A DNA stretch of 64,000 bases from Isurus oxyrinchus (lineage: Eukaryota). The DNA lies in assembly GCA_026770705.1 (NCBI GenBank), contig JANJGN010000041.1:3844001-3908000 (forward strand), written 5' to 3'. A program made the position numbers and the translations under genes. Of this stretch, positions 10,067 through 64,000 are shown one piece after another (positions within the stretch are counted from its first letter, which is position 1; every line of letters starts with the position of its first letter). The notes under the pieces are model-generated. The model saw only the letters and a list, made by a program, of their open reading frames with translations. It was not told where the DNA came from and did not search any database.

Positions 10067-10072
10067 AATAAA
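10067..10072 (+). promoter_or_regulatory. Candidate polyadenylation signal AATAAA for the GPCR gene
   Basis: AATAAA about 155 bp after the stop codon, in an AT-rich stretch. Confidence 0.4.
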
Positions 10073-12360: not shown

Positions 12361-13559
12361 TAATAAACTATCATTGTGTCTATGGCTACACAGTTACTGG
12401 GCATCCCATTTCTCTGTTCTAATATAGTTCTAATTGCATGCAATTGGCAAATGACCCCTCCCACTCCCACAACCCGCGCCTCTGTCCTCTTTAATGAGCC
12501 TAAATGTTCTTAAGCAGCCTTATCTGTGATAATTTGTCTATTAATATCTCAAAATCCTCTAGGGCATGTATTCTCTTCATTAATCTTCTCTGTTGTGATA
12601 TCAAAATGCAACTAGTTTGTTGAAGCATGTTCTTATTTTCAGGCATGGTGTTATAAACCATTGATCATTCTTAATTAAATTCAATAGTTTCCAATTCCTG
12701 GCTAGACTCTTGACAGTCAGGGCAGGTGTATTTACTCTTTTACTGCTGCAGCTGAACAGTGAGAGCAGAGATTGAGAGAGAGCTTGGAGCTGAGAACAAA
12801 CAGGTGATTTTTCTTTTAAGGGGTCGTTGAGGCGCGAGGGCAGAAATATAAAAAGAGCGGGAGCCGGGTTGCCAGAGGAGAGAATGAAAAAGAGCTAGAG
12901 GGAGATAGTCAAAGCCCAGATTAGAAAGTGGCTGTCCTCCCATAACGGAGTTCAAACTAATGCGAGCTAGATAATCAAAACACAGATTTAAAACTAAAAG
13001 GCACTCTTCTCCCAGAGCAGTGATTTATAAAAGTTCAGGATCTAAATAGCTAGAGCATACTTTAATAAGGAGCAGGAAGTATTAGCTAGGACACGGATGG
13101 GGTTGGAATTAACAAGTGAGGTTGATACGAATCCATTGCAATAGGACATGGAGAGTCTACCTGAATAGGCAGGGGATTAGCACAGGCAATTTAATGCGTT
13201 ACAATATAAAATCTTACAATTTGGCAGAAGGGGTAGTGAGGGGGAATAAAGACGCAATGTCACTGAATTTGATAGAATGGATGGACAAATGTGCATGGGC
13301 TTTGATCTTTGATTGTGGTAGACAGATCCTTGCCTCGGGTATGGAGAATTGCAGCGACAGCACCTGGCACCGTACTTTGGGGGAGGGATATGGACTGCAC
13401 TGGGTGAACTTTGAATATGGGCGACCTTTCATTTCTGAATAAGTTTGAAGGTGTCTGTTTAAGAGAAATAAATGAGCGCCCTATTCGTATTTCGGTTTCA
13501 ATGACTAGCACGATCAGAGACAGAGAAAATGGAGGAATGGTGCTCGGGTGTGGAGAAAA

Positions 13560-14955: not shown

Positions 14956-14959
14956 TATT

Positions 14960-16400: not shown

Positions 16401-16599
16401 TAAGGAGGCTCCAACAATATCCACATTTACCATGCGGCGAGGGCCCAGCTCATCACAGGAAAATATAAAGATGAAGCATTCGCAAAAGTATTCCTCTAGA
16501 GGTGTCAAGTGGATGACCCATATTGGCCTCCTCCGTAGGTTCCCCAGAGCACAGATGATAGTCTTCAGCCAAGTGCCTACACTCTCCTTGTTATCAGAG

Positions 16600-18115
16600 A
16601 GCTGCTGAACCTGTGGATACTGCAAGACTTTGGGCACCAATAATCTTCCAGCAATTGTAATGAAGGCTTGTGAACCCGATAGTGCCCTCTGCAATACCCA
16701 TGCTACAACAGTACAGATTCAACATTGGCACATACCCATATATGAGAAATATCGTGAAGGGACGTGATACAGAAAAACAATCACAAACCCAGCCCGTTCA
16801 CTAACAGTTGCATCAGCTTCCATTTCATCATCAGGAAAGTAATGGAAGGGTGCATCAAGGGGCATCTGATCATCATTACTCTGCTCACTGAGGCTCAGTT
16901 TGTGTTCCACAAGGTGCAGTCTGTTCCCAACAGCATCACAGCCATTGACCAAACATGGAGACAAGAGCTGAACTCCAGATGTGACGTGACATTGGCCGCA
17001 CTTAATATCAAGTCAGCATGTGATCAGAAGTATCATCAAGGCGAACTCAAATAACAGCAGTCAATGCAAATCATCGGAAAAACTCGCCGTCGGATGGAAT
17101 CATATCTGGCACAGATGAATATGGTAGTGATAGTTGAAGGTCATTCATCTCAGTTCAAGGATGTCACTGCAAGAGATGCTCAGTATTGTGCCTAGTCCTC
17201 AGCACCTTCAGCCGCTTCATCTATCACCTTTCTTCCCCCATACGCTCAGAAGTGGGGATGTTCGATGACGATTGCTCACTGGAAAGAACATTTGCAACAC
17301 CTCAAATACTGAGCCGTCCATGCCCACATATAGGAAAGTCTGGACATTGTCCAGGCTTGGGGTGAGAAGTGTCAAGTAAGGTTCACCTTACATACGTACT
17401 AAACAATGTTTATCTCCAAAAAATTTTCTAACCATCGTCCCTTGGCATTCAACGAAATTATGATTTCCGAAACCCCGCTATCATGATCCTCAGAATAACC
17501 ATTGACTAGTAACTGAACTGGCCAACCAGTCAAATACTGTGGCTACAGGAGCAGGCCAGAGGCTAGGAAATCTTTGGCGAGTAACTCACCAGCTGACTCC
17601 CCAATGCTTGGCCACCGTCTACAATACACAACACAGGAGTTCCCAGATAAATGCTGCTCCAATAGCCCTCAGGAACCTCAAAACCATCCACCACAAAGCT
17701 TGATTGGCAGCCCGTCAATAATCACGCGCTCCCTCCACCACTGAGGAACAGCAGCGACAGTTTGCACCAGCTAAAATATTTTCCTCAGTAGCACTCCACT
17801 CTTCCTCGTACAGTACATCCCAAATCCACAACAGCTGTCATCTGGAAGGACAGGAACAGCAGGCACATGGAACACCAGCGCTGCAAGTTTTCCTCCCCAC
17901 CACTCACCATCCTGGCTTGGGACTATCGCCGTTCCGTCATTGTCGCTTGGTCAGACCCTGGAACTACCTCCCTAACTGAACTGTGGGTTTATGTGCATCA
18001 CACACACAGCCATGGCACAAGAATGTAGCTCCCCACCAACTTCCCAAGGGTACGAAAGACGAGCAGTAAGTGGCTGCCTAGGCTGCAATGCCATCCTCCC
18101 GTAAAAGAAGAATAA
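16600..18115 (+). mobile_element. CR1-clade LINE RT and 3' tail (second family)
   Basis: ORF 16764..17054 (IIRKVMEGCI...AALNIKSACD), a degenerate FADD-like motif near 17260, gagtaactcaccagctgactcccc, tail at about 18100. Confidence 0.7.
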
Positions 18116-18744
18116 CGATATAGACGTGCTAATGAGGCAACAATGCTCACATTGTTTCACCATGCTCACCATCATTATATATATATATCTGCAGCCTTTC
18201 TGTTCTCCCCTCAGCTTAACTTTCTGCATCGTCTATATCATCAGCAAAGGTAATTACATATTTCTTTGTTTCTTCTATCGCTTCATTAAGATTGATTTTA
18301 AGAGCCATTCAGCAACTGTCAGCCTTTTACACAGGAACAGAAAAAGGTCATTCTGCGCATCGGGCATTTTTGTATTGAAATGGAGTAGGTATTCAATGCC
18401 TCGAGCCAGTTTCACAGAATTAGAGGAAGGCTGTTAAGTCCTTCTTGTGTTGGTTACAAATGAGCAGGAGGAAGCATTCAGCATTATTCGATCCTATTAC
18501 ACAGGGAAAGTGAGAAACACGATTCATGCTATTTTCGACCCTGAAAGACTGGAGCAGGGGGATATTTTGCACCCACAGACTGTTGCCGTGGAAAAGTGGG
18601 GACTGACTGTTTGGAAGCAATTAGCAGGGCGTTGGAATGCTGAACACCATCACTAATGGATCACAGAAGTTTGGATAATTAAGCTTCTCTTGTAGTATTG
18701 CAAATGTTGCCGTTTATCAATGTTAATGATTTCTTTAACAAAAA

Positions 18745-21220
18745 TAAACACACCTGAAAATACTCTGCTGGACTGGCAACTTCTGCGGAGAGGAAGACAA
18801 TTAACGTTTCGAGTCCATAGGACTCTTCAACAGACCTGAGTAAAAATAGTAGAGAAGTGAAATATAAGCTGGTTTAAGGCGGGGGTGGGGGGGGGGGGGC
18901 GCGGTGACCAGTCGAAATGGATGGATGGCCAGTGACAGGTGGAGATAGACAAAAGATGGCATAGAGAAAAGTACAAAAAGGTGTTGGCGGTGGTGGTATA
19001 ATCTAAGGAATCTGCAAATTATGGGTAGAAAGCAGAAGAAGCAAGGTACAAATAGTGGGGGTAGGGAGGGGTGAAGGAATCAAAAAAGGCCAAAAGGTAG
19101 AGATAAAAGAATAGGTGGAAATACATTTAAAAATACTGGAAATAGGTGGTAAACTAAAAGTCTATTTAAATTATTGGAAAAAGGGGGTGGATCGGAAAGG
19201 GGTGGTGTTGGTAGAGAGAGTTCATGATCTGAAATTGGTGATCTCAATATTCAGCGGAAGGCTGTAAAGTGCCTATTCCGAAGATGAGGTGCTGTTCCTC
19301 CAGTTCACTGGCCCTAACCGCCTCCACTTCACCATGGACGTTCAATCACTCAACACCTCCATTCCCCACCGGGATGGCCTGATGGCTTTCCAATTCTTCC
19401 TCGAACAGAGGCCCGAACAATATCCATCCACAAGTACTCTCCTCCGTCTATTTGATTTTGTTCTGACACAGAACAATTTCTCCTTATACTCCTCTCACTT
19501 CCTGCAATTAAAAGTTGTGGCTATGGGTAACCACATGGGTCCTAGCTATTCCTGTCTTCTTTTGGGGTATGTGGAACATTCATGGTTCTAGTCCTACTCT
19601 GGCCACTTCCCAAAACTTTTTCTCTGGTACATCGATGATGCCTTCGGTGCTGCTTCATGCTCTCGCCTGGACTTGGAAAAAAAAATATTAAATATGCTTG
19701 CAATTTACACCCCTCCATCATTTTCACATGGTCAATCTCGGACACTTCCCTTCCAATCCTTGACCTCCCTGTCTCAATTTCTGGTGTTTCACTGTACACC
19801 AATATCCATTATAAGCCTACCGACTCCCACTGCTACCTTGACTACAGTTCCTTACACCCCGCTTCCTTTAAGAGATCCATCGCCGTCTGTCAGTTCTTTC
19901 ACCACCATCGCATCTGTTTTGATCATGTCACTTTCAGAAACAGTTCCTCTGACATGTCCTTCTTCTTCCTTAAGCGAGGATTTCCACCCATGATGGTAAA
20001 AAGGGCACTCAACCGTGTCCAGCCCATCTCCCGTGCATCCGGCCTCACATTTTCCTCTCTGTCACAGATACATGATAGTGTCACCCTTGTCCTCACTTAT
20101 CAACCCAACAGCCTTCACGTTCAGAGTATCATGCTCGGCCATTTCCGTTAACTCCAACATGATGCCAGCACCAAACACATCTTCTCTTTACCTCGCCCGC
20201 CGGCATTCCAGAGGGATCATTCCCTCTTTGGCACTCTGGTCCACTCCTCCTTGGCCTCCTAAATCACAGCCCCTCCAATGGCACCTTCCCATGGAACTGC
20301 AGAAATTGCAACACCTGCCAATTTACTTCCCCTCTCCTCACCGCCCAAGAGCCCAAACACTCCTTTCAAGTGAAGCAGCATTTCACTTGCACTTGCCTCA
20401 ATTTGGTCCACTCCATTCATTGCTCCCCATGCGTTTCCACTACATTGGAGAGACCAAGCACAGACTGGGTGACTGCATTGAACAACAACTTTGGTCTGTC
20501 TGCACGCATTACCCAGACCTCCCTGTCGCATGGCATTTCAACACTCCACCCTGCTCTCATGCCCACATGTACGTCCTTGGCCTGCTGCATTGTTCCAATG
20601 AAGCTCACCACAAACTGAAGGAACAGCACCTCATCTTCCGACTGGGCACTTTACTGCCTTCCGGACTGAATATTGAGTTCAACAACTTTAGATCATGAAC
20701 TGTCTCCTCCGTCCCCACCCACTTTCTGATCCACTCGCACGCTTTTTTTCCAGTAAGATTTACACCTATTTCCTTCATTTTTAAATTTATTTCTATCCAT
20801 TGTGTTATCTCTACCTTTTAGTCCTTTTCGATTCTCTCACCCCACGCAAACCCCTTTCGAGCTATCTGTACCTTGCTTCTCTTGCTATCCAACGTTAAAC
20901 AACGCATTCCGTATATAATATCATCACCTCCAACACATCTTTGTCCTCTTGTCTATAACATCATTTGAATATCTGCACAAATCACTGGCCCTCTATCCAG
21001 ACCTACCTGTCCCAGCGCCTCATACCCCCCCACACCCACCCATCCCCGCCGCTCCTCCACCCCCCATATAACCAGCTTATATTTCACCTCTCTTCTATTT
21101 ATCTTAGTTCTGAGTCATACAGACTCGAACGGTTAACTATGTTCCTCTCCGCAGATGCTGCCTGATCTGCTAGATTTTATTTTTGTTTTGAATTTCCAGC
21201 ATCCGCAGTTTTTTTTCTTT
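18745..21220 (+). mobile_element. 5'-truncated Penelope-like retroelement (RT + GIY-YIG) with an inverted 5' pseudo-LTR
   Basis: RT motifs FTMDVQSLNTSIPH, AMGNHMGPSY, YIDD (19628) and IHYKPTDSHCYLDY; GIY-YIG HYIGETKHRL...PVAWHFN...KEQHLIFRLGTLLPSGLN, stop at 20698. 18745-19308 is the reverse complement of about 20610-21220. Confidence 0.9.
18798..18840 (-). ncRNA. Degenerate minimal type I hammerhead ribozyme core in the Penelope pLTR
   Basis: Minus strand reads CTGTTGA-A-GAGTCC-TAT-GGACTC-GAAACGTT: core CUGANGA with one substitution, 6-bp stem II, GAAA and a palindromic ACGT stem III. Confidence 0.65.
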
Positions 21221-21419
21221 ACCATAATGATTTTTTTATTGTTGTTGGTTTTCATGACATGAAAGTAACCATGTGGAAGCTGTGATGGGTATCTCTGGCA
21301 CATGCAACCATGAGGATTGAGGGATGCATGGTGCTGAAGTGAACTTGTCAGATGATAACAGGGGATACTGCAAACACTGCCCAATATCGGTTTAGGTATT
21401 TACACTATATGGCAAGAAT

Positions 21420-23640
21420 CACAAGAAGAAATGTCTGCCGTTTATGGTCCAGGAACGGATCATGGGTGATTTCAATTTACATTTAAACTGGAAAAATCAG
21501 CTTAGTAGTTAGAAGGATGGATGACTAATACAAAGAATGCCTCTGATGTATATTTGGTATTTTACATTTAAAAAGTATTAATTAATGGCCCCAGAGTAAA
21601 GGCACTCCTCGGTAGCAGCGTTTAAAATATAATTAAAATTTACCTCCAGCTTGAAATGGAAAAGAATATGCCTAAGACTAGTATTTTAAGCTTAAATATG
21701 GGCGTCTCTGTGGGCATGAATGCTGAGCGAGCTGAAGCAAACGGGGATATTAGATTAGTGGACATCTCAAAGGAGAAGCAGTGGCTGACAGTTAATGAGG
21801 CATTTCAGAATAGTCGGAATAAGTACATCTCTGCAGTAAAGGAAGATTATTAAGGGATAACTCAAAAAGTAAGGGAAATCATCGAGCTGATGGTAAGCAA
21901 AATAGACCGTGCAAAGTTTGCGGCCAGGTCAGATGATTGGCCAGGTTAAAAGGAGCATCAAAGAATAACTAAATGGTTACCAGGAATGAGAAATTAGTGT
22001 ATGAGGGGAAACTAGGTAGAAATGTAAAACGGATGTTTTTGAAAGGAAAAGAGTAAGTAAAGGGAGTGATATTCCCATTCTGATTTTTAAAAAAGAGGCA
22101 ATATTACCTAATAAGGAAATGGCGGATAAAATTAAGGTATATGTTCCTTCTCTACTCAGCACACAAGTAGCACAAATGTTCTAGTAATAGTTGTAAAGCA
22201 AGAGCAGAAATGGAGAGCGAGACTTGGTGAAATTGCAATCACAAGGAAAGAGCTCCTGAACAAACTGACGGATCTGCAGGCAGAAGCGTCTCAGTGTCCT
22301 CAGAAACTTTATCCTCGGATCTTAAAAGAGAGGGCTAATGAGGTAAGAGATGCATTGGTGTGAAAAATTCAATATTCTCTCGTTTCTGGAAACGTTCCAT
22401 TCCGCTTGGAGCGCGTTAAACCTCAATATTCACGAAGGAAGGGATATGGAAAACAGGAAAAAATGGGCCAGTTAGCTTGACACCTGCCTTGGGGATGGTG
22501 TTAGAAGCGATCAGGCAGGAGGTTATAGCTGGGCACTTAGAGATAATCAAGGTAATCGGGAAGAATATCCATGGTATTGTGAAAGGGAAATCTGGTTTAA
22601 CCATTTAATTGGAGTTTCTGGAATGATTGACGTGGGTTGTGGACAAATGGGGATGCTTTTGCATGCGCTGTATTTCGGATATTCGGAAGGCAGTTGATAA
22701 GATGTCGCATCAAAGTTTATTTTAGATGTAAAATGCTCATGGCCTATGGGTTAACTTATTATCATGGACAGAAGATTGGTTAGCTGGCAGATAACAAAGA
22801 CAAGCGAGCGTATTGTGGTAAAATGGGAATGTTTCACTCTGGCAGGGTCAATGTAAATAACATTTGGTGATACCTAACCTGAGAAAGGCTGCAGGATTCC
22901 GAACTGCAGAGGGAACAAGCTGGTCAAAGGCATGATTCGGAAAAAGTGGCCATGCAGGGATGCATTGTAATTCAGATGGGTAATTAATTGTTATGCTTTT
23001 TTGTGAGGGTAATTGAACATAAAAGTGAGGGTGTTATGCTTCGCTTAAACACGTCATTGGTGAAGTCTGGAATATTGTTTGTAGTTTTGATTTCCATGTT
23101 TATGGAAGGATGTCAATGCATGGAGACACATCAGAGAAGGCTTACTAGGTTGTCACCTGGAGTGAATGGAATGTCTTGTGAGCAAAGGTTAGGAAGATCG
23201 AACTTGCCTGCAGAGCATTTTACAGGAGCAATGGGTGAAATCATTGAAGGTAATGCGAACCTGAAAGCTTTTGACAAGGCGGTGGGAAAACATCTTTCAT
23301 GTTTTGGGTGAGCCCTGAATTAGGAGGCATCTATTAAAAAAAGGTTTTGCCCTTTCAGGACACAGTTTATGAGTTTGTGCTTTATTCTGTTTGTTTCTCC
23401 TCGAGGTTTATCTGACGTTGGAACTCTCTGCCTTAGAAGGCGGGGGAGGAACGATCACTGAATATTGATAAGATGGAGGTCAATATATTAGTGCAAGGAA
23501 AATGAATCAAAGCTTATGGGGTTGGTTGGGAATTTGAATCTCGAAACAAACAGATTAGCCATGAACTATATAAATGGTGGAGAAGTTTCGATGGGCCAAA
23601 TAGCCTATTTCTGCTCATATCTTTGCTTTTTGTATGTTTG
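21420..23640 (+). mobile_element. CR1 LINE ORF2 remnant with 3' tail
   Basis: IMGDFNLHLNW (endonuclease), GPVSLT, HGIVKGKS (RT), tail tcgatgggccaaatagcctatttctgctc at about 23590. Confidence 0.8.
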
Positions 23641-24334
23641 TAATCGTGACGACATTGATGAATTTGATAGCAACAATATAAACATTAAATTTTATATGTT
23701 GCCAGAGCGAAAGAGGTCAGTGAGCACAATGGGGATGCTTAATGCGGATTTGTGAGAGTTCGGATATAGGCAGCACAGTTTTAGATGTGTTTTGATCATT
23801 CAGATTTGTAACTGGTGTTGCCAGGAAAACAATTAGAAAAGTTGAGCCTGGATTTCACAAAAGGACAGGTGAGGCTTTGAGCAGCAGATGATCTGGAGTA
23901 GAAGTTCTGGTATAATGTGGAGGATCGAGTGAAAAGCACTGGGTGACGTGATAATGTGGAGGCGCTTGTCAGTCATAGCCAAGTGGATCACAGAGGTTGT
24001 GACCTATCTGTTTCATCATCAGATGTTGGCCAGACACTGGTCTATGTATGCATATTGATTAGAAATGATAAAAATGTCCGCCATCTTCACATTCTTGAGC
24101 ATCACGGAAGGTAATGCAATGAATCATGGATTTCAGACATAGCATCTGGATAGAATGTTTTGACAGGAAGTACGCCAAAGCAATGATTGGAGAGTGAGTT
24201 AACGAGATTATCAGTAAGTTAGGAATGGGATTTCGAGTTAACAACTGAACGCAGAGATGCAGGAAAAAAAGACAAAACAGGGCAGATTAAATGGCTACAA
24301 GAGGGACAGCGTCAAACATCGTTCATATAATTAC

Positions 24335-24632
24335 TTCCTGAATAGGGAACAATAGCCACGATGGCAAATACATCTACTAAACAGTAGTCCGAAATGGATC
24401 CACTTGGCTTAGTTATTGACGAATCATCTGCAGAAATAACTTTGAAAGTGTAAGATAATCCGCTGTCCCTTGTTTGTACATTTCGCTCTATTGTTCCAAC
24501 ATCGCCTGCATTGTCTTAACATTCGAACTAATTTATCTCAGATTCTGATCCACTTCTGCAACATTCAATTTGATTGGCTTCAGATTCAAACCCATTGTTG
24601 TAACATTTCAATCTATTGATCTCAGATTCAGA
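24335..24632 (-). pseudogene. Orphan decayed exon 1 of a GPR139-like receptor with about 3 copies of the 42-bp repeat
   Basis: Minus strand aatctgagatcaatagattgaaatgttacaacaatgggtttgaatctg...gtggatcagaatctgaga, ending in gccatcgtggctattgttccctattcaggaagt (degenerate PILAxxGVPG|gtaag). Contains stops; no exon 2 recognised. Confidence 0.7.
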
Positions 24633-24728
24633 TTTGTTCAGGCAAATTGGGTAAATGTTGCTAGAAAATGGAAATTCTACGGCAAAGTGGAATCCCACTG
24701 GCTTCCGTGGAATGCCGCTGCAGGCCTG

Positions 24729-24799
24729 TCATCCTCAGCAGAGTGGTGAGTATCACCAGCTTCACATGGGAGGCGGGGATTCAAATCACTGACGCGGCA
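24729..24799 (+). pseudogene. Highly decayed tRNA-Asp-like pseudogene
   Basis: ...agtggtgagtatc...gggagg...ggattcaaatc...gacg, in the same flanking context as the copy at 31168. Confidence 0.55.
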
Positions 24800-26834
24800 A
24801 AAAGCCATTATTCAAATTGTGCGCCCCAGAAGGCATGCTCACCATTTTTATTAGCAAATGTGTTTTCATTTCCTGATGAATATCGACATAAAGGGCACAT
24901 CCTCATCAATCCGGACAGAAGGCAGATTTGCAAATATACATCATGAGGAAAGATGTTGGAAAAATTAGAATGTCAAAATCCCCTGTCGGCAAACGGCCCT
25001 TTACCCCATCGTGCTGCCAGCCTCCATCTTGTAGATGTCGCAACATTTACCGAAAATAACTCATCCCAAAGTTTATCGACGGCACGTCCTAAAAAAAAAC
25101 ATGGTTTTGAATCGAGAACTGCATAAGACACAACAGGCATTACGAAAATCGCTAAGGCTGAGGTACTTCACATCCCACCCCCGATTGAGCATCCAGGGCT
25201 AACTGACCACGACACCGTCCAGGCAGGAACACAGCTCCACATCGCCTGTACCAGATGCTGCTGCAGCCTGAAGTACGCTTGTGATGGCCAGAGTGTCAAC
25301 CGACATGTACGCAGTGCGTTTCCAGGAGCTCCAAACTGGTAACAAATATCATTTGAAGGCACGCAAATTCCCATTACTTGCAATCAATAGGAAAAGTAAA
25401 ATCATATTTCAAAAGATACTCATTCAATCGCACTCCGCCCTTCTTTCACGTTATTCCTGACTTTGTACATTCATTATAGCATGTGCACACTTCCCTTGAG
25501 AACATAAGAATTCAAGCAGAAAAAAAAAGCAACAACCTTGCATGTAGTCTCCTCAAAAGGCCAAGGTAATCAAGCGCAAAAAACAAAGTTTCACCAAAAA
25601 TCTTATCAAATCTTTGCTGCCTGAATACTCACTCTACTTCAACTGAAGTTCTGACCATGAAAATGTGCCTGGATTTTGAACGCCGCTCTATAACCTCTCC
25701 AGAATACACTGTGCTTGATGCTTTAATAAACTATTGGATTTCAGCTTTGCCAGCAGCACGGCATACATGGCTTGTTCCTCCCAAGTAACAGGGTCTGTCC
25801 CAAGTGTGACGCACAGAGGTCAAAAATGAAAGCTGAGTGAGAATACCGGTCAATTTTCACAGAAACCCAAATTTTAGGAAAGAAATAAGCGGGCCTGAAA
25901 GTCTATGTGGAAAGAAAGAAATGCTTTACTTTCCGAGTCCGTGGGGCACTTTTTCAAAACTTTCATATGTCAATTTTGTTCGATCATGTTTGTATATGTA
26001 GGCTGTCTTAACTACATTTCTGCACTCCTCTTTAGGCACTTAACATTCAGTCTGAAATGAAAACAGCCTTGTGGAAATCCGATCCAATAGCCTCGTATAA
26101 CACTGCATCAAAACACGCTCTCCACATGTAGTCTCTGCTCCCCTGTCCACATCCCCTTCTTCTGGTCCACACTTCTGCAACAAATAGCGTTCAAGAAATT
26201 TGGGATTTTTAATGCTTCGATCACGTGCCGTGTTTTATGTCTGTGCTGAAAGCTGACCGTGAGAAGTCAACATATTTTATTCCATTTTTCATGGCGCTGC
26301 TAGCGTCCATGGATCCTGCAGCTGCACTAAGCCTTTATCTCTGAAGAGTGACCGAGAAGGATTTAAAATGCAGAGCGGCAAGTGGTGATTGGAAACATTG
26401 CTTCTGATTGGTTTGCTTATGTTACTGAGTGAAAATGAATAAAGAAACGTCTTTCTTTACCGCTTACATGTGAAGTTTTAAATTCGACACACTACATGGT
26501 TTGTGTAGATTATAGAATTAGAGCTGGGAGCGTGGCTGCTGGTGATTGGCGTCTGAATCAAATGGACGACTGGAAATCCTTGCGAATTCTTTGAAAGACT
26601 GTGCGAGTGACAAAATGAGGTAAACAACCGAGGAAGATGGACCTGTGCCTTTGGGCAACGGGAACAACTGACGTCATGTACCGAATTTGAAGAAAAACTA
26701 TGCAATCCCGTTCAAACCGATGGAAGTTAATTGTTTGCATTGTGCAGGCAAACTGTGCAACTATCGCTTCAAAATGAAAACCTGAGTGCAAATTGGAATA
26801 TCACTAGCTCCCTTGGGAAGCACCAGCCGGGCTC

Positions 26835-38219: not shown

Positions 38220-41200
38220 ATGTGTTACAGAGCTGGGGGCTGTCACTGGCATATTAGAGTGGGTGACTGTCACAATGGTTACACAGCTGGTGACTGTAAC
38301 TTCGGTAACAAATTGTGGTGGAGACTGCAGCACTGTTTAAATGGAATAGGGTGCAGGCACTCTGCTTACACAGCTAAGGGCTGTCAGTACAGTGAAAGGA
38401 TGTGGGGACTGTCGCTATTGTTGCTGTGCTAGAGGGTAATCACTATGAAAAACGGATTGGGTGAAATGTTACTCAGGTTAAAGAGCTGGGGAACAGACAT
38501 TAAAGTAATTGATTGGTAAATTGTCCCTCAGGCTACAGAGCCAGGGACCAATCGTTATAGGAATTGATTGAGGAAACCATCGCTCATGTAACAGTGCCAG
38601 AGTTCACTCATGCATTGCATTGGCTGAGCAGACTATCAAACAGGTTACAGAGCAGGGGTCCACACATCATAGCAAATAATTGTGGAGACTGCCACTCAGG
38701 ATACAGATCCGGGAATGGTCACTATCACAATTGATTGGTTAGACAGTCACGTTACAAAGCCAGGGGCCACACACGCATTAAATACATTGGCAAGACTGTC
38801 ACTCAGGTTACAGAGACGGGACCCAGTCACTAAAATAATTGATCGGGGAGCCAGTGACTCAATGTACGGGTTCAGTGGCTGGTCAGTATCGAAATAGATT
38901 GGATTGTCACTCAGGTTATTAAAGAAAGGAACCATCAGAACTCCAAGTGTTTGGCGAGACTGTCACTGAGCTTACAGAGCAGGGGCCAGTCATTCGAGTA
39001 ATTGATTAGGGAATCTGTGACTCAGGTTGCATGCCCGCATGACAGTCAGTATATTAGTTGATTAGGGAGCCTGTCACTTAGGTTAAAGAGCAGTGGAGCA
39101 GTTTGTATAATAATTAATTGATGAAGCTTTCACTCAGGTTACAGGGCCAGGGATTATTCAGGATTGTAATTCATTGGGGAATCTGTCACTCAGGTTAGAG
39201 AGCGAAGGGCCTCTAAGTACCATAACAGTTTGCGAAGACTGTCACTCACGTTACAGACCAGGGCTCAGTCAGTATAGCGATTGATTGTGGAGTCTGTCAC
39301 TCATTTTGCAGTGTCAGTGGTCATTCGGAATCATTATTGTTTCGGGTCGCAGTCAGTTAGTTTATAGATCCGGTCTACTCATTTATAGCAATGGATTGGG
39401 GAGAATGCCAAACATGTTACAGAGCAGGGAGCCTGTCAGTACAGGAATTAAATGAAGGGACTTTCTCCCAGGTTACAGAGGCAGCGGGCAGCACAGTGTA
39501 GGAATCGATTGAAGAGACTGTCACCAAGGTAAACCGAGCCTGGACCAGTCATCGGGAGAATTTATTGAAAAGAATGCCACTCAGATTACAGTGCCAGGGG
39601 CTTGTCAGTAGATTAATTCACTGGGAAGTCTGTCGCTGAGGCATCAAGGATGGGGACCAGTCACAATATTAGTTGATTTGGGAGTCTGTCACCCAGGTAG
39701 CAGAGCCGGGGTTAGTCACTTTTGGAATGGATTTGAATGACTTTGACTCAGATTACAGAGCCAGGGGTCATTCAAGATTGTAATTCATTGGGGAGAATGT
39801 CAATCAAGTTACAGCGCCAGAGGTCATTCTCGATAGTATTTGATTTTGGAGAGTGCCAGTCAGGTTACAGAACTGGGAACAGTCACTAACAGAATTTATT
39901 GCGGAGATAGTCATTCTGAGCCAAGAGCCACTCATGAATGTGTAATTTAGTGAGGAGCCTTTCACGTAGGTTACAGAGTCGAGGCCCAGTCATGACAGCA
40001 ATTGACTGGGGATAATGTCATTCAGGTTAGAGAGTAGGGGCCCACTCAGGAATGTAATTGACTTCGGAGAATATCTCTCTATGCTTGCAGATTCAGTTGC
40101 CACAAGGTATTGTGATTAATTGAGGAGACTGTCACTCTGTTTACAGATCCAGAGAAACTCACTCTGGGAATTGTTTGAGGAAGGTTTCTCTCAGGTTAAA
40201 GAGCACGGGGCCAGGCAATATCGGAATTTCTTGAGGAGACTGTTACTCAGGATCCAGAGCCAGGCGTCAGTCAGAAGAGTAAATTTATGAAGAGGCTGTG
40301 ACTCAGGTTACAGAGCCCGAGCTCAGTCAGTATCGGAATAGATTGGGGAGACTGGCACTCAGCTAACGGTGCAGGGACCTTGTCACTAAAGGAATTCATT
40401 GAGGGACTGTCACTCAGGTTACAGAGCCGAGGACAGTCACAACATGAATTGATTGTAGAGACAATCACTCAGGAAACAGAGCCATCTATCATTAGCGACC
40501 ATAATTGATTTGAGGAGGCTGTCACTCAAGTCTTTGAGCAAGGCACCTGTCAATATTCTAATTGATTGGGGAGCCTGTCGCTCCGGTTAAAGGGCATGGG
40601 CCCAGTCAATAATTTATTTGATCGGGGAGGCTGTGACTTAGGTAACGAAGCCAGGGGCTTGTCTTTATAGTAATGGATTGGGTGGTCACTCAGGTTAGAG
40701 GAACAAGGGCCCGCCAGAACAGCAAGTGTTTGGAGAGAATGTCGCTCAGGCCTCGGGGCCAGTCAGTACAGTAACTGATATGGGAGCCTCTCACCCAGTT
40801 TAGAGAGCCTGGGACCAGTCTGTGTAGGAATTAATGGATGAGGCAGCCACACAGGTTGCAGAGCCAGGGATAAGTCCGAATTGTAATTGATTGGGGAATC
40901 TGCCACTCAGTTTAGGGGGTGAAGAGCCTCTTCGCACAGCAATAGTTTGCAGAGACTATTACTCACGTTACAGAACCGGGGCAGAGTCAGTGCAGTGATT
41001 GATTGGGAAAACATTCACTAATTTGACAGAGCCAGGGCCCTGTCAGTAAAGTAATTGATTCAGGACACAGTCACTCAGGTTACAGAGCCGGGGGCCATTC
41101 ACGTATTGCAATTTATTAGGGAGACTGCCAATCAGGTTATAGAGCAGGGAGACTGGCTCTGCAGGAATTGATTGAGGACACTATCTTTCAGGGTACAGAG

Positions 41201-41235
41201 CCAGAGGCCTGTCAGAATAATAACTTGGGAATCAC
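38220..41235. repeat. 56-bp satellite/minisatellite, about 50 diverged monomers
   Basis: Consensus by eye GACTGTCACTCAGGTTACAGAGCCAGGGACCAGTCAGTATAGTAATTGATTGGGGA; CACTCA recurs at 39131, 39187, 39243 and 39298. Confidence 0.92.
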
Positions 41236-50690: not shown

Positions 50691-51241
50691 ACTTCTGGTG
50701 TACCCAGTATATCACCCTTCTTCTCCTGAGATGTTTAAATATCAACCATACTCCCACAATGCACCTGTTAAATATCCCCACATCTCCGATGAACCTGGGA
50801 TAGAGACAATCTCCTTGTAGCTGTTATATTGCCCTCTTGCCCTTTTGTGCCTAGAATAAACTCGAAGCCCATGTACCTATCTCATCCCTCCGTTGGCCCG
50901 TGATATACTTCACCCCTCGTTGCGCTGGCTGCTTTTGTTGATGTCCAGGTTGCAATGACAACCATGAGTGGGCGGGGCAAGTGATGACTCTTCGTTTCAC
51001 TCTCTGTGCTCCAGTCAATCTGGGCCTCTGTGCATGGCTGACAAGCAACACCATGTGGGACAGACTCTGTCCATTTTCTCTTTCAGCATAAGGACAGCAC
51101 AGCCCCAAACCCCTCTGCTGCTGCCAACCTAACAACAGCCACTCTAACAATGGAAATACAAAATAAATTTGAAACATAATGGACATTCGCAGTCAGTCAT
51201 TGTTCAGATCGTTGCACGGATTGATGCATTCGAGGAACGGG

Positions 51242-52090
51242 TTATCTCAGCACATTCGTTAAGTGCTGCTTGAACTTAGGCTGGGTCACGGCATAAATCC
51301 CAGTGTTTGTGCAGCAACTCAGGAGCTGCAGCATGAAACCCAATTCCATCACAATTTAAACTATATCAACTTGCATATTCCTCAAGAACGATATTCAGTC
51401 TCAGATAGAAACAACATTAATATTCCCAACAACAGGATGAAACGAGATAACGAGCAGTGAAATAATTGATTTCCTCCTACATTCCATCTCTGGATCTCTG
51501 GCACTATCCCTGCTGCTTTGAGACCGGAGTCTCTTTGCGGGGACAGCTTTTTAATAAAATGTGTCTCAGGGTGAGATCATTGAGCAGCAGAATCAGGAAA
51601 AATGCGACACGGGGTGAGAATGTAATGGAGAAATTCTATCGTTACCCAGGCCCGAGAGAGCTGAAGAGAAATAGTTACATCACAAAAACCATGAGGCGTT
51701 CCTCAGTAAACAATAACCTGTGAGCATAATATACCAGGTGATCTTCTTTAAACAGCTCAGAGCCGTCACTGTTCCCAGAATCACAGCCGCCATTTTCTCC
51801 ATACAATATTTACTGTTCAGATTCTGGTGACAAATAGCGACAAATCCATAACAGGTGAGAGTGACTGTGAACCAGACAGAACAGCCACTGGCGGAATATA
51901 GGAGGACGGTATGGACATTACACAAACTAAGAAAATACAGGATATTAAACCCTGTAATGTGTCTCAATATCAGGTCCAGGATTACGACCAATAGATCCGC
52001 CACTGACATGGCCACCAGGGAGCGAGAGGCACATGTGTAAACACCACACTTTCTCCGAGAAACGATGACCAATTGGCAACAAAATAACCA
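51242..52090 (-). pseudogene. GPR139-like GPCR pseudogene, exon 2
   Basis: SRRKCG...VAMSVADLLVVI...CSVWFTVTLTCYGFVAIC (DRF lost); +1 frameshift in a T run at about 51685, then CDVT...AWVTIEFLHYILTPC, further frameshifts, DPEMECRRKSII, and LQLLSCCTNTGIYAVTQPKFK to a stop at 51242. Confidence 0.9.
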
Positions 52091-53025: not shown

Positions 53026-53285
53026 CAGGGACACTATTTATAGCCAGGATGGGATCGTAGCAGGCTTAAATAACTAAAGGTATCCATATGATGCGCCAGT
53101 ATAATGTATACGATCATCTTCAGCAGAAAGTAAGTTAAATGCTGCAGTGAGGCTCCTGGTCATTGTTGTAACATTTCAATCTATTGTTGTCAGATTCAGG
53201 CCCATTGTTGGAATATTCCAATCTATTACTTTCAGATTGTGAACCATTGTAGTAACATTCCAAGCCATTGTCCTCAGATTGTTAT
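53026..53285 (-). pseudogene. GPR139-like GPCR pseudogene, exon 1, with 3 copies of the 14-aa repeat
   Basis: NNLRTMAWNVTT MVHNLKVIDWNIPT MGLNLTTID*NVTT MTRS ... VI*ACYDPILAINSVP G|gtaag (donor at 53025); two in-frame stops. Confidence 0.85.
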
Positions 53286-53579
53286 CTCTCCTTTCCTTCC
53301 TTCTGAAGTTGATGACCCCGGTTTGTGGCGGATGGAATGCTCGCAATGATAGTGTGGGAAAACGCTTTGAAAAGATCCAATTATAAATAGGAGTTGGCAA
53401 CCTTTTAGGGGCACAATTAAAATCCATAGAGCCTGATATTAATCACAGCCATTGAACGGACAGGTTCTGTCAACCCCTTTCATTCCAAAACTCTTGTGTC
53501 AGAACAGAGATTTACAAGGCGTGATGAGCGCCATAGCGCCATAGCGCCATAGCGTCATAGCGGAAACAATGTACATAAT

Positions 53580-55125: not shown

Positions 55126-55329
55126 AGCTCCAGTTGAATATCGGTCAGAAACCATTTGCCCGAAAGAGTGCAGCCCAAGCAACACACAGAAAGCTCGAGC
55201 CCATTCAGAACAAAGCTGCCAGGTTGATTAGCACCCGATCCAGTAACATTCACTCCCTCCATCTCCGATACACACTCGTAGCTGTTTTCAAGGAAAATGG
55301 GAAGAATCAGTGAATTAACAAATTGGACA

Positions 55330-56420
55330 GTTTGTGTTTGTGCACATAACCTCTTGTATGTCGTTTTTGTGTATGTTTGCACATAACCACTCGTTTATTG
55401 TTGTGTGTATGTGTGTACCTAAAATCTTGTTTCTTTTTGTGTTTATGTATGTCCATAACCTAATATATGCAGTTTGTGTGTATATTCGTACATAACCACT
55501 TGTTTATTGTTTGTGTTTATACATATTTACTGTTTATGTGTATACATGTACATCAACAGCTGCTTATTGTTTGTGTGCGTGTGTGTACGTAAGCACTTGT
55601 TATCATTTGTGCGTATGTGTTTGACTTGTTTGCTATTTGTGTGTTGCATGTCCAAAACAACTTGTTTATTGTCCGTTTGATGTGTGTACATAAATACATG
55701 TTTACTGTTTGCTGTTGCTGTGTGCGTACATAACCTATTTCTACATTTTGAATAATGCATGAACATGACCACATGTTTATGTGTGTGAATGTGTGTACAT
55801 AACTCGCTTACTTTAGTGCATAACCAACTGTTAATAGTTACTGTTTAAGCGTGTACATAATAACTTATTTAAGTTTGTTTGTATGTGTGAATAACCACTT
55901 ATTTATTGATTGTGTTCATTTGAGTACATAACCACTTTGCTATTGTGTGCGTGTGCACGCACATAACCAGCTAGATATTGTATGTCAGCATGTGTCTACA
56001 TAACCATTTGTTTATTTATTGTGTGCATATATGTACATAACAGGTTGTTTGCCGTTTGTGGATGTGTGTGTGCCTAACTACGTGTTTGCTGTCTGTGCGC
56101 ATGCATACGTAATCACATGGCTATTGTTTGTGTTTATGTGTGTACATGAACACTAGTATACTCTTTATGTGTATGTGTGTTCATTGCCACCAGTTAATTG
56201 TTTGTGTGAATGTCTGTTACATTGCCAACTGTTTATTTTTTGTATGTGTGCTGTGAAGAACCAATTGTTTATTGTTTCTGTGTATGTGTGTTTATAACCA
56301 CTTATTTATTTTATGTTAATGCGTACCTAAACACTTGGTCATTGTTTCTGTGTATTTGTGCATGCAAAAACATTTATTTATTGTTTGTTTGTAAGTGTGC
56401 ACATGGCATTTGTTTTTTCA
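55330..56420. repeat. TG-rich ~36-37-bp minisatellite (TGTGTGTATGTGTGTACATAACCACTTGTTTATTGTT-like)
   Basis: acataacc-like cores at 55344, 55381, 55417, 55453, 55490 and onward. Confidence 0.85.
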
Positions 56421-56479
56421 TTGATCCTGGTGTTATGGTGACAATTTTACATGTCAATTATTAGCTCAATGCCGGATGG

Positions 56480-59489: not shown

Positions 59490-60750
59490 TTTAATATTAG
59501 CTTTCAGGTCTTCTGTTTCTTTCAGTGATTTTAGGAGTTTAGGAGCCCATATTTTTCCTCGGGCAATTGTAATTTCAGGGGTCAAAACTATTTTCAGAGC
59601 GGTAATAAATTCAGGTGCTGTCTTATGTTCAGAGGCCATCTCAGTTTCACCATCAATCACAGTCTCAGGTGCGGCATTAGTTTCAAAGCCACTGTTGCAC
59701 TCGATGTATTACTCCTATTTCGTGTCTGCATTACTTTCAGATTCTCTATTAGTTCTAGGTCCAGAATTAGTTTCAGGGCCTCTATGAGACTCAAAGCCTG
59801 TAACAAAATCTGGGCTTGTATTAATTTCAGGGCCTCTAAGAGTTACAGAGCCTGTAATAGTACCTGGACCTGTATGAGTTTCAGAGCCTGTAATATTATC
59901 TGGACCTGTATGAGTTTCAGAGCCTGTAATATTATCTCGGCCTGTACTACTTTTGGGGCCTGTATGAGTTTCAGAGCCTGTAATAGTATCTGCGCGTTAA
60001 TGAGTTTCAGTGCCTGTATGAGTATCAGAACGTGAAATAGTTCCTGAGCCTCTATTTGTTTCAGGGCTGCATGAGTTTCAGAGCCTCTAATATAATCTGG
60101 GCCTGCATTAATGACAAAGCCTCTATGAGTTTCAGAACATGTAATAGTTTCTCGGCCTGCATGATTTTCAGAGCTTGACATAGTTTTAGGATCTTTATTA
60201 GTTTCAGGATCTGCTTTATTTTCATGGTTTCTGAAAGTTTCAGGGACTGTAATAGTTTCAGGATCTGTATTTTTTCCAGGGCCTGTATTAGTTTCAGGTT
60301 TTATGTTAGCTTCAGGATCTGAATTAGTTTCAGGGTCTGTTTTCAGTTCAGGGCCTCTCTGAGTTCCAGCTTCTGCATTAGTTTCAGTGTCTGCTTTAGG
60401 ATCAAGGCCAGAATTCGTTTCATGGTGTGTATTACCTTCGAGGTCTCTATTACTGTCATGGTTTTTATTAGTTCCTGGTTCTGTATTAGCTTCAGGGCCT
60501 GAATGAGATTTGGAACCTGTCGTAGAATTAGGGACTTTTATGGTTTCAAAAAATGGTACTGGCACTCTGGTCCTATATTATTATATTTTGTCTGCATCTG
60601 TTTCAGGGACTTTGTTAGGTTCGGGTCCTATATGAGTTTGAGAGCGTACGTGAGGTTCAGATCCTGTAACAATACGCGGGACAGTATTAGCTTCAAGGCC
60701 ATATGAGTTTCAGAGCCATTAATAATTTCTGGATGTGTATTAGACTTAGG
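59490..60750. repeat. 18-bp tandem repeat (TGTATTAGTTTCAGGGCC consensus), about 70 diverged units
   Basis: Direct periodicity. Minus frames read GPETNT or ALKLIQ; plus frames read CISFRA or VLVSGP. Confidence 0.9.
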
Positions 60751-60879: not shown

Positions 60880-61830
60880 TTGGCACACACTTATAGAATC
60901 AGACAGTTTAGCAGGAGGTCATTTTTCCCATCGTTCCTATTAACACTCTTTGCAAGAATTATATAATCAAATTCATCTCTCTCCGACACCACCAAGACCC
61001 TTCCATTACCTGAGCAAATATCCACTGTCTGACCACAGGCAATTATATGGTGAAAGTCACTGATATATCTCACTCTGCCAGGCTTTCAGGCAGCGTATTC
61101 CAGATTTATCGGCCCCTCTCCGTTTCTTTGTCAATCACTTTAAAACATTGTCTGCTGGTTACTGACCCATATTCCAGGATCACCAGTTTATCGTTATTTG
61201 CTCCATAATATCTCATCAAGATTTCAAGTGTCTCTATTAATCCCCCAATTTTCCTGATCTGCTTTAAGGAAAACAGTTCCAACTTATCTAGTCTCTCCAT
61301 GCAATTCAAATCCCTTTTCGGTCTTCCAATTCCAGTAATATTCTTCTACCCCCGGTCCAAGTCCCTAGCATCCTTTCTGAAATGTCCTCCCCAGAATTAG
61401 AAATAATACTGCAGCTAACGCTTCACCAAGACTTATAGTTAGAACATTTTGGCTCTGACTTTCTTACTTTTTCTAAACTCTGTTTCGATTTATCAATAAA
61501 TAATATACTGTAATTTTAATACTCTAAAAGGATTGCACTATCACATACAACTACTTGGTTATGCAATCCTAATCTATTTATTGAACAGCTCCCAAATTTG
61601 CCCGGTTTTAAACTTTGCACAACTCTCTTTGTACTTTTCCTTACCACAAACACAATTGTACATCTCAGCCAGACCGCGTGAATGTACCACTTTCGTGCAG
61701 TGCAAGAAAAACTGGATTGAAATGGTTAACTGAATCTGTTTGTTCAGTGGCTGGAATTAATGGCAGTCTCCATGGATCCTAATTACCTCACTGGGTGCCT
61801 CCCACTGCTGTTAAAAATGGCTTTGCTTCC
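60880..61830 (-). mobile_element. CR1 LINE 3' end
   Basis: ORF 61106..61309 reads ERLDKLELFSLKQIRKIGGLIETLEI. Confidence 0.75.
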
Positions 61831-61907
61831 ATCTGTTACATCATCATGTTAGCAGGAGAATCAGCTCTGCCACTAATATGCAATTGCAGCTTCAAAAGGA
61901 GGATAGA

Positions 61908-62159
61908 CTATAACAGAATCGCAGGACAATAGATTGGAATCTTACAATAGTGGATCAGAACCCGAGAGCAATAGATTGGAATGTTCCAACGTTGGATAAT
62001 AATTTGAGAACAACAGATTGGAATGCTGCAACAATGGATCAGAACATGAGAAGAAGACATTGGAATGTTACAACAATGGATCAGAATCTGAGAACAATAG
62101 ATTTCAGTGTTGCAGCAATGGATCAGAACCTGAGAACAATGGATTGGAATATTGGAACA
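61908..62159 (+). repeat. Six 42-bp units, consensus ATGGATCAGAATCTGAGAACAATAGATTGGAATGTTACAACA (MDQNLRTIDWNVTT)
   Basis: Units start at 61908, 61950, 61992, 62034, 62076 and 62118, with no indels. Confidence 0.92.
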
Positions 62160-62298
62160 ATGAACAGGAGTGTCAGCGATGCACTTTACATGCTGTCTGT
62201 AGAAAAAGATTGGTTGGATTTGAATGAAAGGTTCTATTTTGTCATTTTGACTATTCAAGCTGGTTATTATCCCATACTCGCCACTTTTGGTGTACCTG
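62034..62298 (+). CDS. Coding exon 1 of another GPR139-like GPCR; exon 2 not seen in the window
   Basis: First in-frame ATG at 62034 (acaATGG); the frame is open from 61914 and ends TIQAGYYPILATFGVP G|GTAAG, same phase and position as exon 1 at 1013-1082. Functionality cannot be confirmed without exon 2. Confidence 0.75.
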
Positions 62299-62839
62299 GT
62301 AAGTTTCAATACCAAACTATTAATTTTCTATCAACAATTTAACAATATTAATTTTCTTGATTTATCTAATTTGCGATCACCAAATCCATTGTCTTCAGTT
62401 CCGGTCACTTTTTATGCTCCCTATCCATTGACTCCGTAATGCCTCCCTGGCTAATATTCTAGGCTGTGCCAGTCTATTGTCCAGCCTCTGATACCTTTTT
62501 GATTTTTAGTTGGTTTTCTTCCCCAATTTTCTAACCATTAGTAATCCTGCGATTTCACTATCTCCACTTCTGCATCTGCCCGTTTGCTGCCAAAAGGATG
62601 GAATTCATAACCTCATTGTGATCTTCCATTGCAGCACTGAAACGTTAGATGCCTGATGCCTGTGCTCGCAGTTGAAGCGGATACAATGGCCAGCAGACCC
62701 TATATCACGGAAGGGTCCATTAGCGTTCTCTCTATACTCTTTCACCCCGTTTATAATTCTACCATTTATACTGTTTTGTCTCTCCTCATTCCTCCTCCTA
62801 AAACATATTCCTGCACACATCTGCCATGCCAATTAATGA

Positions 62840-63690
62840 CGGTACAGACTAAAGTCATTATTTCCTGTCTGCGCATCAACCTTTCTTTTTTACCAAACCT
62901 CCATTTCATTCCTCTCCTCACCATCTGTCTGAGATTGCAACAATGCATTCACAGCCCTGGCCTCACATGTCAGCCTGAATTGCACTTCTTAACCACATCT
63001 TCAAGCAATCACTCATGCTCCCGATTTCCACCTGCATTTCATCGCCCTCAAATGCCTATGCCTCCGCTCACCTGTGGCTTTTTTTACCTCACAGGCACAA
63101 TAATACTGACACACTCAGAGCAGGTCTCCCACAATCTACCCTCCAGAAACACAGGGCCATCTGGAATGCTGCAGTTCTTGTCTAAACTCGCACCATGTAA
63201 CGATCGCCAATCACATCTGTGTCACTTAACTGCATTGGCTCCATGTCAATCAATGACTTGATTTTAAATTCTCATCCCTTTACGACCATGCGCATTCTGT
63301 TCATGACCCCGACTCCCTGCAACCAACCGCCCGCCCCCACCAACGCCATTGCTGTAGTATAATGTAACCTAAAAAACCTCCAGAATATTTGCACACATTT
63401 AATTATATTCTCCTGATGATCCCCAATTTTAATCATTGCATCATTGGTGGTCGGATCTGCATTGCCCAAGAGTCGAAGCTCTGGAATTCCATCTTTAAAC
63501 TCCTCAAAATCCCTATCTCTCTTTGCTCCAGCACAACACACATTAAACCTCAATCTCTGATCAAACTTTTGGTCATCTGAGCTAAGATCTCCCTATCCAT
63601 CTCTGTGTCATGCTTTGATTTATATTGCTGCTGTGAAGCTCCTCCAGATGGGTTGATTACATTGACGACATTATGTTAATATAGGCTGAT
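62840..63690 (+). mobile_element. L2 LINE 3' fragment
   Basis: TKVII...IPLLTICLRLQQCIHSPGLTCQPELHF (L2 RT C-terminus-like), gcattggctcc...gattttaaattctc, tail gctgtgaagc at about 63630. Confidence 0.6.
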
Positions 63691-64000
63691 GCGGATCTAA
63701 TGCTCCAGGCACCAGACTATACCTGTGGCAATTGATTTCATCGTACTGGTCGATCACCCTTCATCGTGGACCGTTATGGTTCTGTTAGGAGAGCTCCTAC
63801 ATCTGAGTCAGAAGCTCGGGCTGATTGAGCCAATCGCGCATTATTGGTTTCCGAATAACACAGCCACTAATGCTGGCAAGGCTGCGGGTCCATATCCATC
63901 GCAGAGACCGTGATAAGGAGTGGAGCACAGGCAGGAGGATAATCCACCTGAAAGGCAAATAGCCATATACAATAACGATGTTTGTTATTAAGGGCAATAA

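Follow-up and report, generated by a model that had tools for sequence, protein, structure and literature searches.

The window, by which we mean the whole 64,000-nucleotide stretch of Isurus oxyrinchus DNA analysed, carries close to its 3' end the first exon of a class A receptor gene that belongs to a GPR139-like family of sharks. Six units of 42 bp occupy 61903-62159 of this exon. They run head to tail, fall within the 10-100 bp range of minisatellite units and lie above chance both by TRF, which reports 5.6 copies at 61926-62162 with 77% matches and 0 indels, and by a matrix scan. The matrix was derived from 61950-62201, with 30 shuffles of the window as background; units 2-6 score 48-52 bits and unit 1 scores 28 bits, against a shuffle maximum of 18.1. 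The exon and its surroundings on the forward strand are composed as follows.

61903-61949, + strand: unit 1; head ATA GAC, no ATG, 5-nt insertion; predicted 5' UTR
61950-61991, + strand: unit 2; GTG head (61950); predicted 5' UTR
61981, + strand: out-of-frame ATG of unit 2, opening 8 codons whose stop ends at 62007
61992-62033, + strand: unit 3; TTG head (61992); predicted 5' UTR
62023, + strand: out-of-frame ATG of unit 3, opening an 8-codon frame across ATG 62034, with its stop at 62049
62034-62075, + strand: unit 4; first in-frame ATG (A at -3, G at +4) and an N-V-T sequon
62046 and 62065, + strand: inner ATGs of unit 4, the former in frame, the latter out of frame with 8 codons and a stop ending at 62091
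62076-62117, + strand: unit 5; ATG (A at -3, G at +4), Trp replaced by F and Asn11 by S, without sequon
62118-62159, + strand: unit 6; ATG (G at -3, G at +4), without sequon
62139, + strand: second in-frame ATG of unit 6, at the head of a half-unit
62160-62298, + strand: post-repeat exon 1; Met with an N-R-S sequon, variable ectodomain and the start of TM1 (YYP..GVP), frame open
62299, + strand: canonical phase-1 splice donor GT, directly 3' of exon 1

Each unit is itself a doubled 21-mer, with 15 of 21 nucleotides identical between the halves, and the majority of the 12 units in the window translates as MDQNLRTIDWNVTT. Unit 1 is preferably read as ATA GAC (61903-61908), a TATAA insertion (61909-61913) and then CAG; the 5-nt insertion supplies the in-frame TAA at 61911. 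An initial annotation of this DNA had noted this TAA, the GTG and TTG heads and the ATGs at 62034, 62076, 62118 and 62160, all of which were confirmed. It had also placed the heads in a strong context (A at -3, G at +4), which is correct for 62034 and 62076 but not for 62118, with G at -3, or for 62160, with A at +4. The N-V-T sequon that it gave for the consensus is present in unit 4, whereas the other two ATG-headed units, 5 and 6, have no N-x-S/T sequon at all. To its list we add in-frame ATGs at 62046, 62139 and 62190, the last of these past the array, out-of-frame ATGs within units at 61981, 62023 and 62065, and upstream ATGs at 61846 and 61878.

Translation of the DNA predicts a frame that stays open from 62034 through exon 1. 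Exon 2 was not found in 62299-64000 and lies outside the window. The exon has the units, 35-residue spacer, YYP..GVP motif and phase-1 donor of the repeat-bearing receptor clade described below, and its 49-residue spacing is the one found in 69 of 106 unit-carrying relatives. The post-repeat part is 43-59% identical to its 25 best matches. It scores under all 69 clade members, which may reflect either lineage or decay.

The sequence ahead of the array contains three features.

61809-61817, + strand: TATA-like site, degenerate here (TGTTAAAAA), aligned with the TATA-like element of paralogues
61846-61932, + strand: upstream ORF of 28 codons, in the leader frame that enters the array in homologous models
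61878-61913, + strand: 11-codon upstream ORF that shares the receptor frame and closes with TAA 61911

The leader can be aligned among paralogues, and the TATA-like site lies about 95 nt ahead of unit 1. This site pairs with TATTTATAA of the paralogue at 53 kb and also aligns with the T-I-N-K/E-G stretch of the upstream-extending models P0005 and P0186, the homologue reading there being a back-translation only. If 61809-61817 marks the TATA position, the TSS would lie near 61840 and the whole array would be transcribed, as the leader sequence suggests. The 28-codon ORF is out of the array frame owing to the 5-nt insertion. A stop inside one unit had been proposed to be bypassed by the next ATG; the TAA at 61911 sits in a unit that has no ATG, so that this proposal finds no support here. 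In the consensus unit, the +1 frame contains an ATG that opens 8 codons across the ATG of the following unit, and the W-N-V codons are the direct source of this out-of-frame ATG. Upstream of the TATA-like site, a conserved block with two TAAT cores occurs at 61700-61790 and at 53500-53410 (- strand); common to a live-looking gene and a pseudogene, it is a candidate promoter element of the clade.

The RNA fold of leader plus array is no better than that of shuffles (z 0.07), and we dropped a role in RNA structure on these grounds. Rfam returned nothing in the array region, its only match in the window being a tRNA at 26835. Neither the repeat nor exon 1 has a significant Pfam match (best E 0.038), and the ESM Atlas returned only unnamed clusters, at 0.80 or below.

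Further receptor loci are present in the window.

53164-53289, - strand: exon 1 of a pseudogene with three units; unit 1 headed by AGA, Trp of unit 3 replaced by TGA, and a frameshift further on
51212-52072, - strand: exon 2 of the same pseudogene, interrupted by several stops and a change of frame; on the tree, a long branch within the repeat-bearing clade
24512-24637, - strand: relic of an array, at least three units long and containing two stops; cut on the 5' side by a 2.1-kb duplicated block
1013-1082, + strand: exon 1 of an intact short-N-terminus receptor, without the repeat; donor at 1083
8974-9911, + strand: exon 2 (7TM) of the gene at 1013; Pfam 7tm_1, E 2.7e-21

The matrix scan finds arrays in the window only at 61903-62159, 53289-53164 (-) and 24637-24512 (-). 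No exon 2 for the 24.5-kb relic was found in 10000-24500. Exon 1 at 1013-1082 is identical to Cetorhinus P0018 at 21 of 23 residues, and the closest relatives of exon 2 at 8974-9911 are from Carcharodon (83%) and Cetorhinus (75%), with which the tree also groups it. The scan detects no array at this gene, and none of its 120 nearest relatives, which form a short-N-terminus subfamily, contains a unit. The initial annotation had arranged the loci as a paralogue series of 0, 3, 3 and 6 copies. The counts are correct, but the series is not: the two three-copy loci are dead, and by its sequence the gene at 1013 belongs to another subfamily and is not the zero-copy state of the same array. The intron of this gene contains one isolated partial match to the unit at 1471-1512, which scores 21.9 bits against a shuffle maximum of 18.1 and may be due to chance.

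A search with exon 1 identified 17 named shark proteins containing the 14-residue unit encoded by the 42-bp array, and a profile built from ten of them matched 1877 proteins. Among the best 120 of these 1877 relatives, 105 have 1-8 units and 15 have none. Units are predicted to be coded in frame from 62034 here and in those 105 of 120 gene models. Whether the unit is confined to exon 1 had been put forward as a check, and in the protein models the repeat is tied to this exon: across 242 named proteins, 244 of 249 called units lie ahead of the 7TM match, and the other 5 are in a single model that consists of exon 1 only. We considered and rejected a dispersed repeat or transposon fragment, since the arrays in the window all lie in receptor exon-1 sequence and the protein units precede the 7TM; this assessment covers the window DNA and the protein models. 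A phmmer search against 1.84 billion representatives yielded 107 matches, of which 3 are named shark proteins. Seven others (48-69% identity) all contain units (7/7) and mostly share the YYP..GVP end of exon 1 (6/7); a distant carrier that is not a receptor is possible among the remaining 97, at 12-43% identity.

In a tree of the 7TM region with 241 rows, all 106 carriers fall into one clade of 122 leaves with SH-like support of 100, while the remaining 119 rows have no unit; this deep split is partly a product of sampling, as the rows come from two top-120 lists obtained with two distant queries among roughly 2000 family members. P0001, P0004 and P0005 were left out of the tree because of short 7TM matches. 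The carriers belong to the genera Heterodontus, Stegostoma, Rhincodon, Scyliorhinus, Mustelus, Heptranchias and Pristiophorus. As these seven genera represent both shark superorders, the repeat is older than the superorder split, which took place roughly 200-300 million years ago. The array is genuine, of old age and spread across the family.

Of 33 sister pairs of gene models, 23 differ in copy number, among them five pairs from Heptranchias that are just 0.03-0.07 substitutions per site apart. By these sequence comparisons, the minisatellite turns over fast between closely related loci, and this turnover among relatives shifts the length of the N-terminus across the family in steps of 14 residues. 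The proposed variation across paralogues and species is thus borne out by both the range of 1-8 units and the sister pairs, with only coded units visible in gene models. Unit similarity is 0.75 within an array and 0.60 between proteins. Eight intact clade models start at the post-repeat Met and have zero coded units. Thirteen gene models include the genomic 5' flank, and their first unit begins with I (6 models), R (4), M (2) or N (1). Because the 5'-most units often lack an ATG, the coded N-terminus grows and shrinks in modules, and the modular change proposed in the initial annotation holds in this evolutionary sense across the gene models of the family. All homologues are automatic models, in which the first ATG is chosen by rule and frameshifted or stopped units are hidden.

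Several models show deviating forms of the repeat. Unit variants of 13 and 7 residues occur in Scyliorhinus models, and P0225 has a frameshifted 5' unit. In P0004 (Scyliorhinus canicula), the C-terminal tail at residues 256-324 corresponds to a +2-frame translation of the repeat; the consensus has no stop in this frame, and the tail probably arises from a mis-splice into the array of the next paralogue.

To describe constraint on the unit, we tallied the parsimony changes at every position of the last unit and set these tallies against the non-synonymous opportunity of the codon concerned. The sample comprised the 69 of 106 carriers with canonical spacing, leaving out 37 non-canonical ones; the neutral model is crude, and 47 of the 69 rows of the FastTree tree are from Heterodontus. 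The uncensored Met after the last unit shows 17 changes against 19-20 expected (p 0.56-0.72). Internal starts are therefore kept no better than under neutrality. The comparison gives no support to the claim that each unit is selected as a start, nor to a selected ladder of alternative initiation sites. The unit Trp changed 7 times against 11-13 expected (p 0.11-0.28), and the sequon Thr changed 18 times against 13. The Asn positions are slow, with 6 changes at Asn4 and 4 at Asn11 against about 16 expected, and Asn11 is the slowest position of the unit (p under 0.001). Rates are unequal among the positions of the last unit (chi-square p 0.003-0.007). Overall, the last unit has 13.9 changes per site, the adjacent ectodomain 22.4 and the TM1 start 12.7.

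The DNA of the window provides a second view of the same question. Compared with the majority of the 12 units, units 4-6 show 2 synonymous and 13 non-synonymous differences, and the two dead copies 3 and 15, and 4.5 and 20.5, respectively. Units 4-6 fit an omega of 1 (p 0.26-0.41), and an omega of 0.4 or less is rejected (p 0.01-0.04), in a test that comprises 15 changes in one gene, itself possibly decaying. The initial annotation had named neutral evolution of the units as evidence against its own proposal, and the window DNA, with its 2 synonymous and 13 non-synonymous changes, points to neutrality. That the gene at 61903-62298 is decaying is suspected from its degenerate TATA-like site, the insertion in unit 1, the neutral-looking units, the low post-repeat score and its two dead neighbours; we put the chances of decay near even.

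No AAT codon has changed in the two dead copies (0 changes at 36 nucleotides over their six units), compared with 25 changes at 124 other A/T sites (Fisher p 0.0013), a comparison chosen after the fact. Asn4, one of the two slow Asn positions, lies outside any sequon. The slowness of a non-sequon Asn, together with unchanged AAT codons even in dead copies, means that slow Asn is not a clear sign of selection on the protein. The AAT result could instead point to constraint on DNA or RNA, with the unit acting as a regulatory motif just past the TSS and copy number tuning transcription, a reading that we consider highly improbable. The consensus unit does contain TGGAATGT and GATTGG, which we take to resemble TEAD and inverted CCAAT sites, and this would suit such a role. 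However, chance matches to some motif are frequent for a 42-mer, the TGG is mutated in 4 of 6 dead-copy units and in unit 5, and the AAT contrast is absent from the six units of the gene at 61903-62298 itself (4/36 versus 16/128). The fold and Rfam results given above also argue against it.

We next consider the protein segment encoded by the repeat. The tail is hydrophilic and contains no signal-like stretch. In the AlphaFold model of the homologue P0007, repeat residues 1-6 and 9-29 have pLDDT under 50 (mean 81.7), and its two units form a coil without secondary structure, followed by a short helix and TM1. The repeat-coded tail is most likely disordered, extracellular and optionally glycosylated. 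A glycan ladder, as initially envisaged, finds no support at this gene: the predicted start at 62034 includes two sequons and those at 62076, 62118, 62139 and 62160 one each, so that the predicted isoforms differ by at most one sequon. In the segment between repeat and TM1, hypervariable positions alternate with conserved ones, as expected of ligand-diversifying receptors.

These properties raise the question of whether the units could be a selected, length-tunable N-glycosylated stalk, which would promote surface arrival or retention of receptors that have no signal peptide, or would shield the pocket, with Met being incidental. Such a stalk would account for the slow Asn11 and for the hydrophilic, signal-less tail. 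It would also fit the sequon counts in the gene models: sequons per N-terminus climb with copy number, sequon-less N-termini are absent among models with at least two units (0/45, counted from the seed unit with Gly at position 10), and short-N receptors have none (0/54). On the other hand, the sequon Thr changes faster than expected while the non-sequon Asn4 is slow too, and the AAT codons are unchanged even in dead copies. Eight clade models do without any coded unit, and here only one of three coded units carries a sequon. The sequon is intact in 81 of 128 internal units. Taking both sides together, we regard a selected stalk as unlikely.

We favour, with moderate confidence, the explanation that a duplication spanning the start codon became a minisatellite, in which the first surviving ATG sets the length of a tolerated, disordered tail and the internal ATGs are passengers. 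According to this explanation, a 21-bp half-unit would have doubled to 42 bp around the start codon in the ancestor of one GPR139-like clade. Because the duplicated stretch contains ACA-ATG-G, fresh copies would be born with a good start codon. Copy number would then drift, presumably through slippage or unequal crossing-over together with homogenisation within arrays. Ribosomes that scan a leader begin mainly at the first ATG in good context. The main start would thus be the first surviving in-frame ATG, predicted at this gene to be 62034 with three coded units. Units 5' of it would become 5' UTR, and units 3' of it would become disordered extracellular tail, each with zero or one N-glycan site. 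The tail would be tolerated and dispensable, a by-product and not a designed set of alternative starts. The four upstream ATGs of the gene at 61903-62298 should reduce its output, and its array would be decaying at about the neutral rate.

Some observations stand against this favoured explanation. The last unit is slower than the adjacent ectodomain and about like the TM1 start, position rates differ and Asn is slow. Internal Met is retained in 110 of 128 internal units, and none of the 45 multi-unit models is sequon-less. Persistence in both shark superorders is also long for a functionless 42-mer.

The retention of Met could alternatively mean that the array works as a means of translational control, which extends the model of the initial annotation. 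Leaky scanning or re-initiation would then produce a ladder of isoforms in 14-residue steps, and the out-of-frame ATG within each unit would make ATG-less 5' units into uORFs that damp output and shunt ribosomes to later starts. The context of the seven heads, with a purine at -3 in 7/7 and G at +4 in 6/7, is in keeping with this, as is the uORF at 62023-62049, which spans the first ATG and ends 27 nt ahead of the ATG at 62076. Nonetheless, we judge such control improbable, because Met retention equals the neutral expectation, the first ATG with A at -3 and G at +4 should capture most ribosomes under the scanning rule, the out-of-frame ATG simply follows from the W-N-V codons, and the predicted isoforms here would hardly differ in sequons. 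Under the favoured explanation, the out-of-frame ATG in a perfect array should trap leaky ribosomes and so work against an isoform ladder; in ATG-less 5' units it would become a uORF. Since the uORF at 62023-62049 could divert some ribosomes to 62076, isoforms are possible at this gene, though differing by at most one sequon.

A more far-reaching version would have the clade, as part of a possibly sensory receptor repertoire, use the start-codon minisatellite as a self-renewing switchboard. Every unit would bring along a start codon in frame, an overlapping uORF of 8 codons and a site for a glycan; dose, tail length and glycosylation would be set jointly by copy number and single-base ATG losses, and nonsense in the tail would be survivable by a start shift. 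We consider this distinctly unlikely.

With a threshold of E 1e-20, the host family numbers at least 2277 protein clusters, and 120 of the 120 matches listed are from cartilaginous fish, mostly under the name 'probable G-protein coupled receptor 139'. The closest PDB sequence match to the family profile is human GPR139, a class A orphan receptor (7vug, 9m42; E 1.5e-12), which also leads the 50 Foldseek rows listed by TMt (0.82, at 22% identity). L-Trp and L-Phe are reported to activate human GPR139 by way of F109, H187, W241 and N271 (PMC5430874). Human GPR139 and the shark clade are alike at three of these four pocket columns, with Y/F in 77, H in 75 and W in 80 of 80 clade members, while the N271 column is F in 68/80. 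With this difference at N271 in the homologues tested, the pocket residues do not fit a GPR139 orthologue or Trp/Phe sensor. The shark genes further differ from human GPR139 in sequence, at about 22% identity, and in their expansion to those 2277 or more clusters.

The Trp of the unit had earlier been suggested, as speculation, to be a tethered ligand. As an agonist of a GPR139-like pocket it would draw on the response of GPR139 to L-Trp and L-Phe (PMC5430874) and on the three conserved columns of the clade. We hold this to be extremely improbable. The N271 column is mostly F, the H and W columns are common to the repeat-less subfamily (17/25 and 25/25), and the unit Trp is not significantly conserved. 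The repeat is an unplaced, low-confidence coil in the homologue model, and clade members without units exist.

P0219 (Scyliorhinus canicula) has a 7-residue repeat variant with a Trp at each seventh residue. W-x6-W spacing is that of MIP/allatostatin-B peptides, and the likeness of P0219 to it is probably a coincidence. The receptors of these peptides are described as GPR139-related in a GPR139 review (PMC12208981).

Variable N-terminal repeats in a multigene family (PMC7073761), stalk VNTRs and alternative initiation are all known. Coding VNTRs in MUC1, PSGL-1, GPIb-alpha and DRD4 resemble the shark array in having in-frame tandem units of variable number. The stalk VNTRs of the first three and GPCR repeats such as that of DRD4 form flexible, often glycosylated segments, which as a rule follow a fixed start and signal peptide or belong to a loop. 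The shark array, by contrast, spans the UTR/CDS boundary, and copy gain and ATG loss therefore shift the start itself. In the POTE family of primates, the repeat units are generally described as beginning with Met. POTE paralogues differ in the number of N-terminal cysteine-rich repeats, 1-3 in the rows of Table 2 that were covered (PMC7073761). POTE is, however, a young multigene family of another protein class, whereas the shark repeat, of much greater age, belongs to the extracellular tail of a receptor. The shark leader is also like systems of leaky scanning, alternative initiation and uORF control in having several in-frame ATGs and upstream and overlapping ORFs, but its extra ATGs show no sign of use or of selection.

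In the literature covered, mostly without subscription journals, we found no published VNTR that contains the start codon and thereby shifts the boundary between UTR and CDS. The array offers a clean natural case in which the coding boundary moves because the minisatellite includes the start codon. Near-identical paralogue pairs one unit apart would make the effects of tail length and uORFs directly testable. The array also matters for annotation, as automatic models choose different units as the start, and P0004 is probably spliced out of frame into the array of a neighbouring gene. A larger lead is offered by the host receptor family, which is apparently unstudied. We found no paper on a shark GPR139-like expansion in the main text of the same literature, gene-family tables in supplements being where it might be listed. 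The passages of the GPR139 review that were covered have no mention of 'shark' or 'cartilaginous' (PMC12208981), and the whale shark genome paper refers to a 'relative paucity' of GPCRs in cartilaginous fishes (PMC8455134).

The window contains other repetitive features. About 1.4 kb upstream of the repeat, an 18/36/54-bp tandem array occupies 59710-60550, and a 244-codon open frame at 59843-60577 (- strand) reads as a Pro/Glu/Thr/Asn-rich repeat with no significant Pfam match. A degenerate TG-rich tandem array of 36-38 bp lies at 55329-56423, and a long degenerate 56-bp array at 38467-41226. An inverted pair (18775-19305 and 21162-20613, 71%) is accompanied by overlapping frames at 19592-20698, which may resemble a decayed Penelope-like or LINE element. 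Finally, 24634-33932 contains several degenerate copies of a block of roughly 2.1 kb and adjoins the 24.5-kb receptor relic; one copy holds a tRNA-Asp(GTC) gene at 26834-26907, and the whole looks like a decayed tandem array of tRNA genes.
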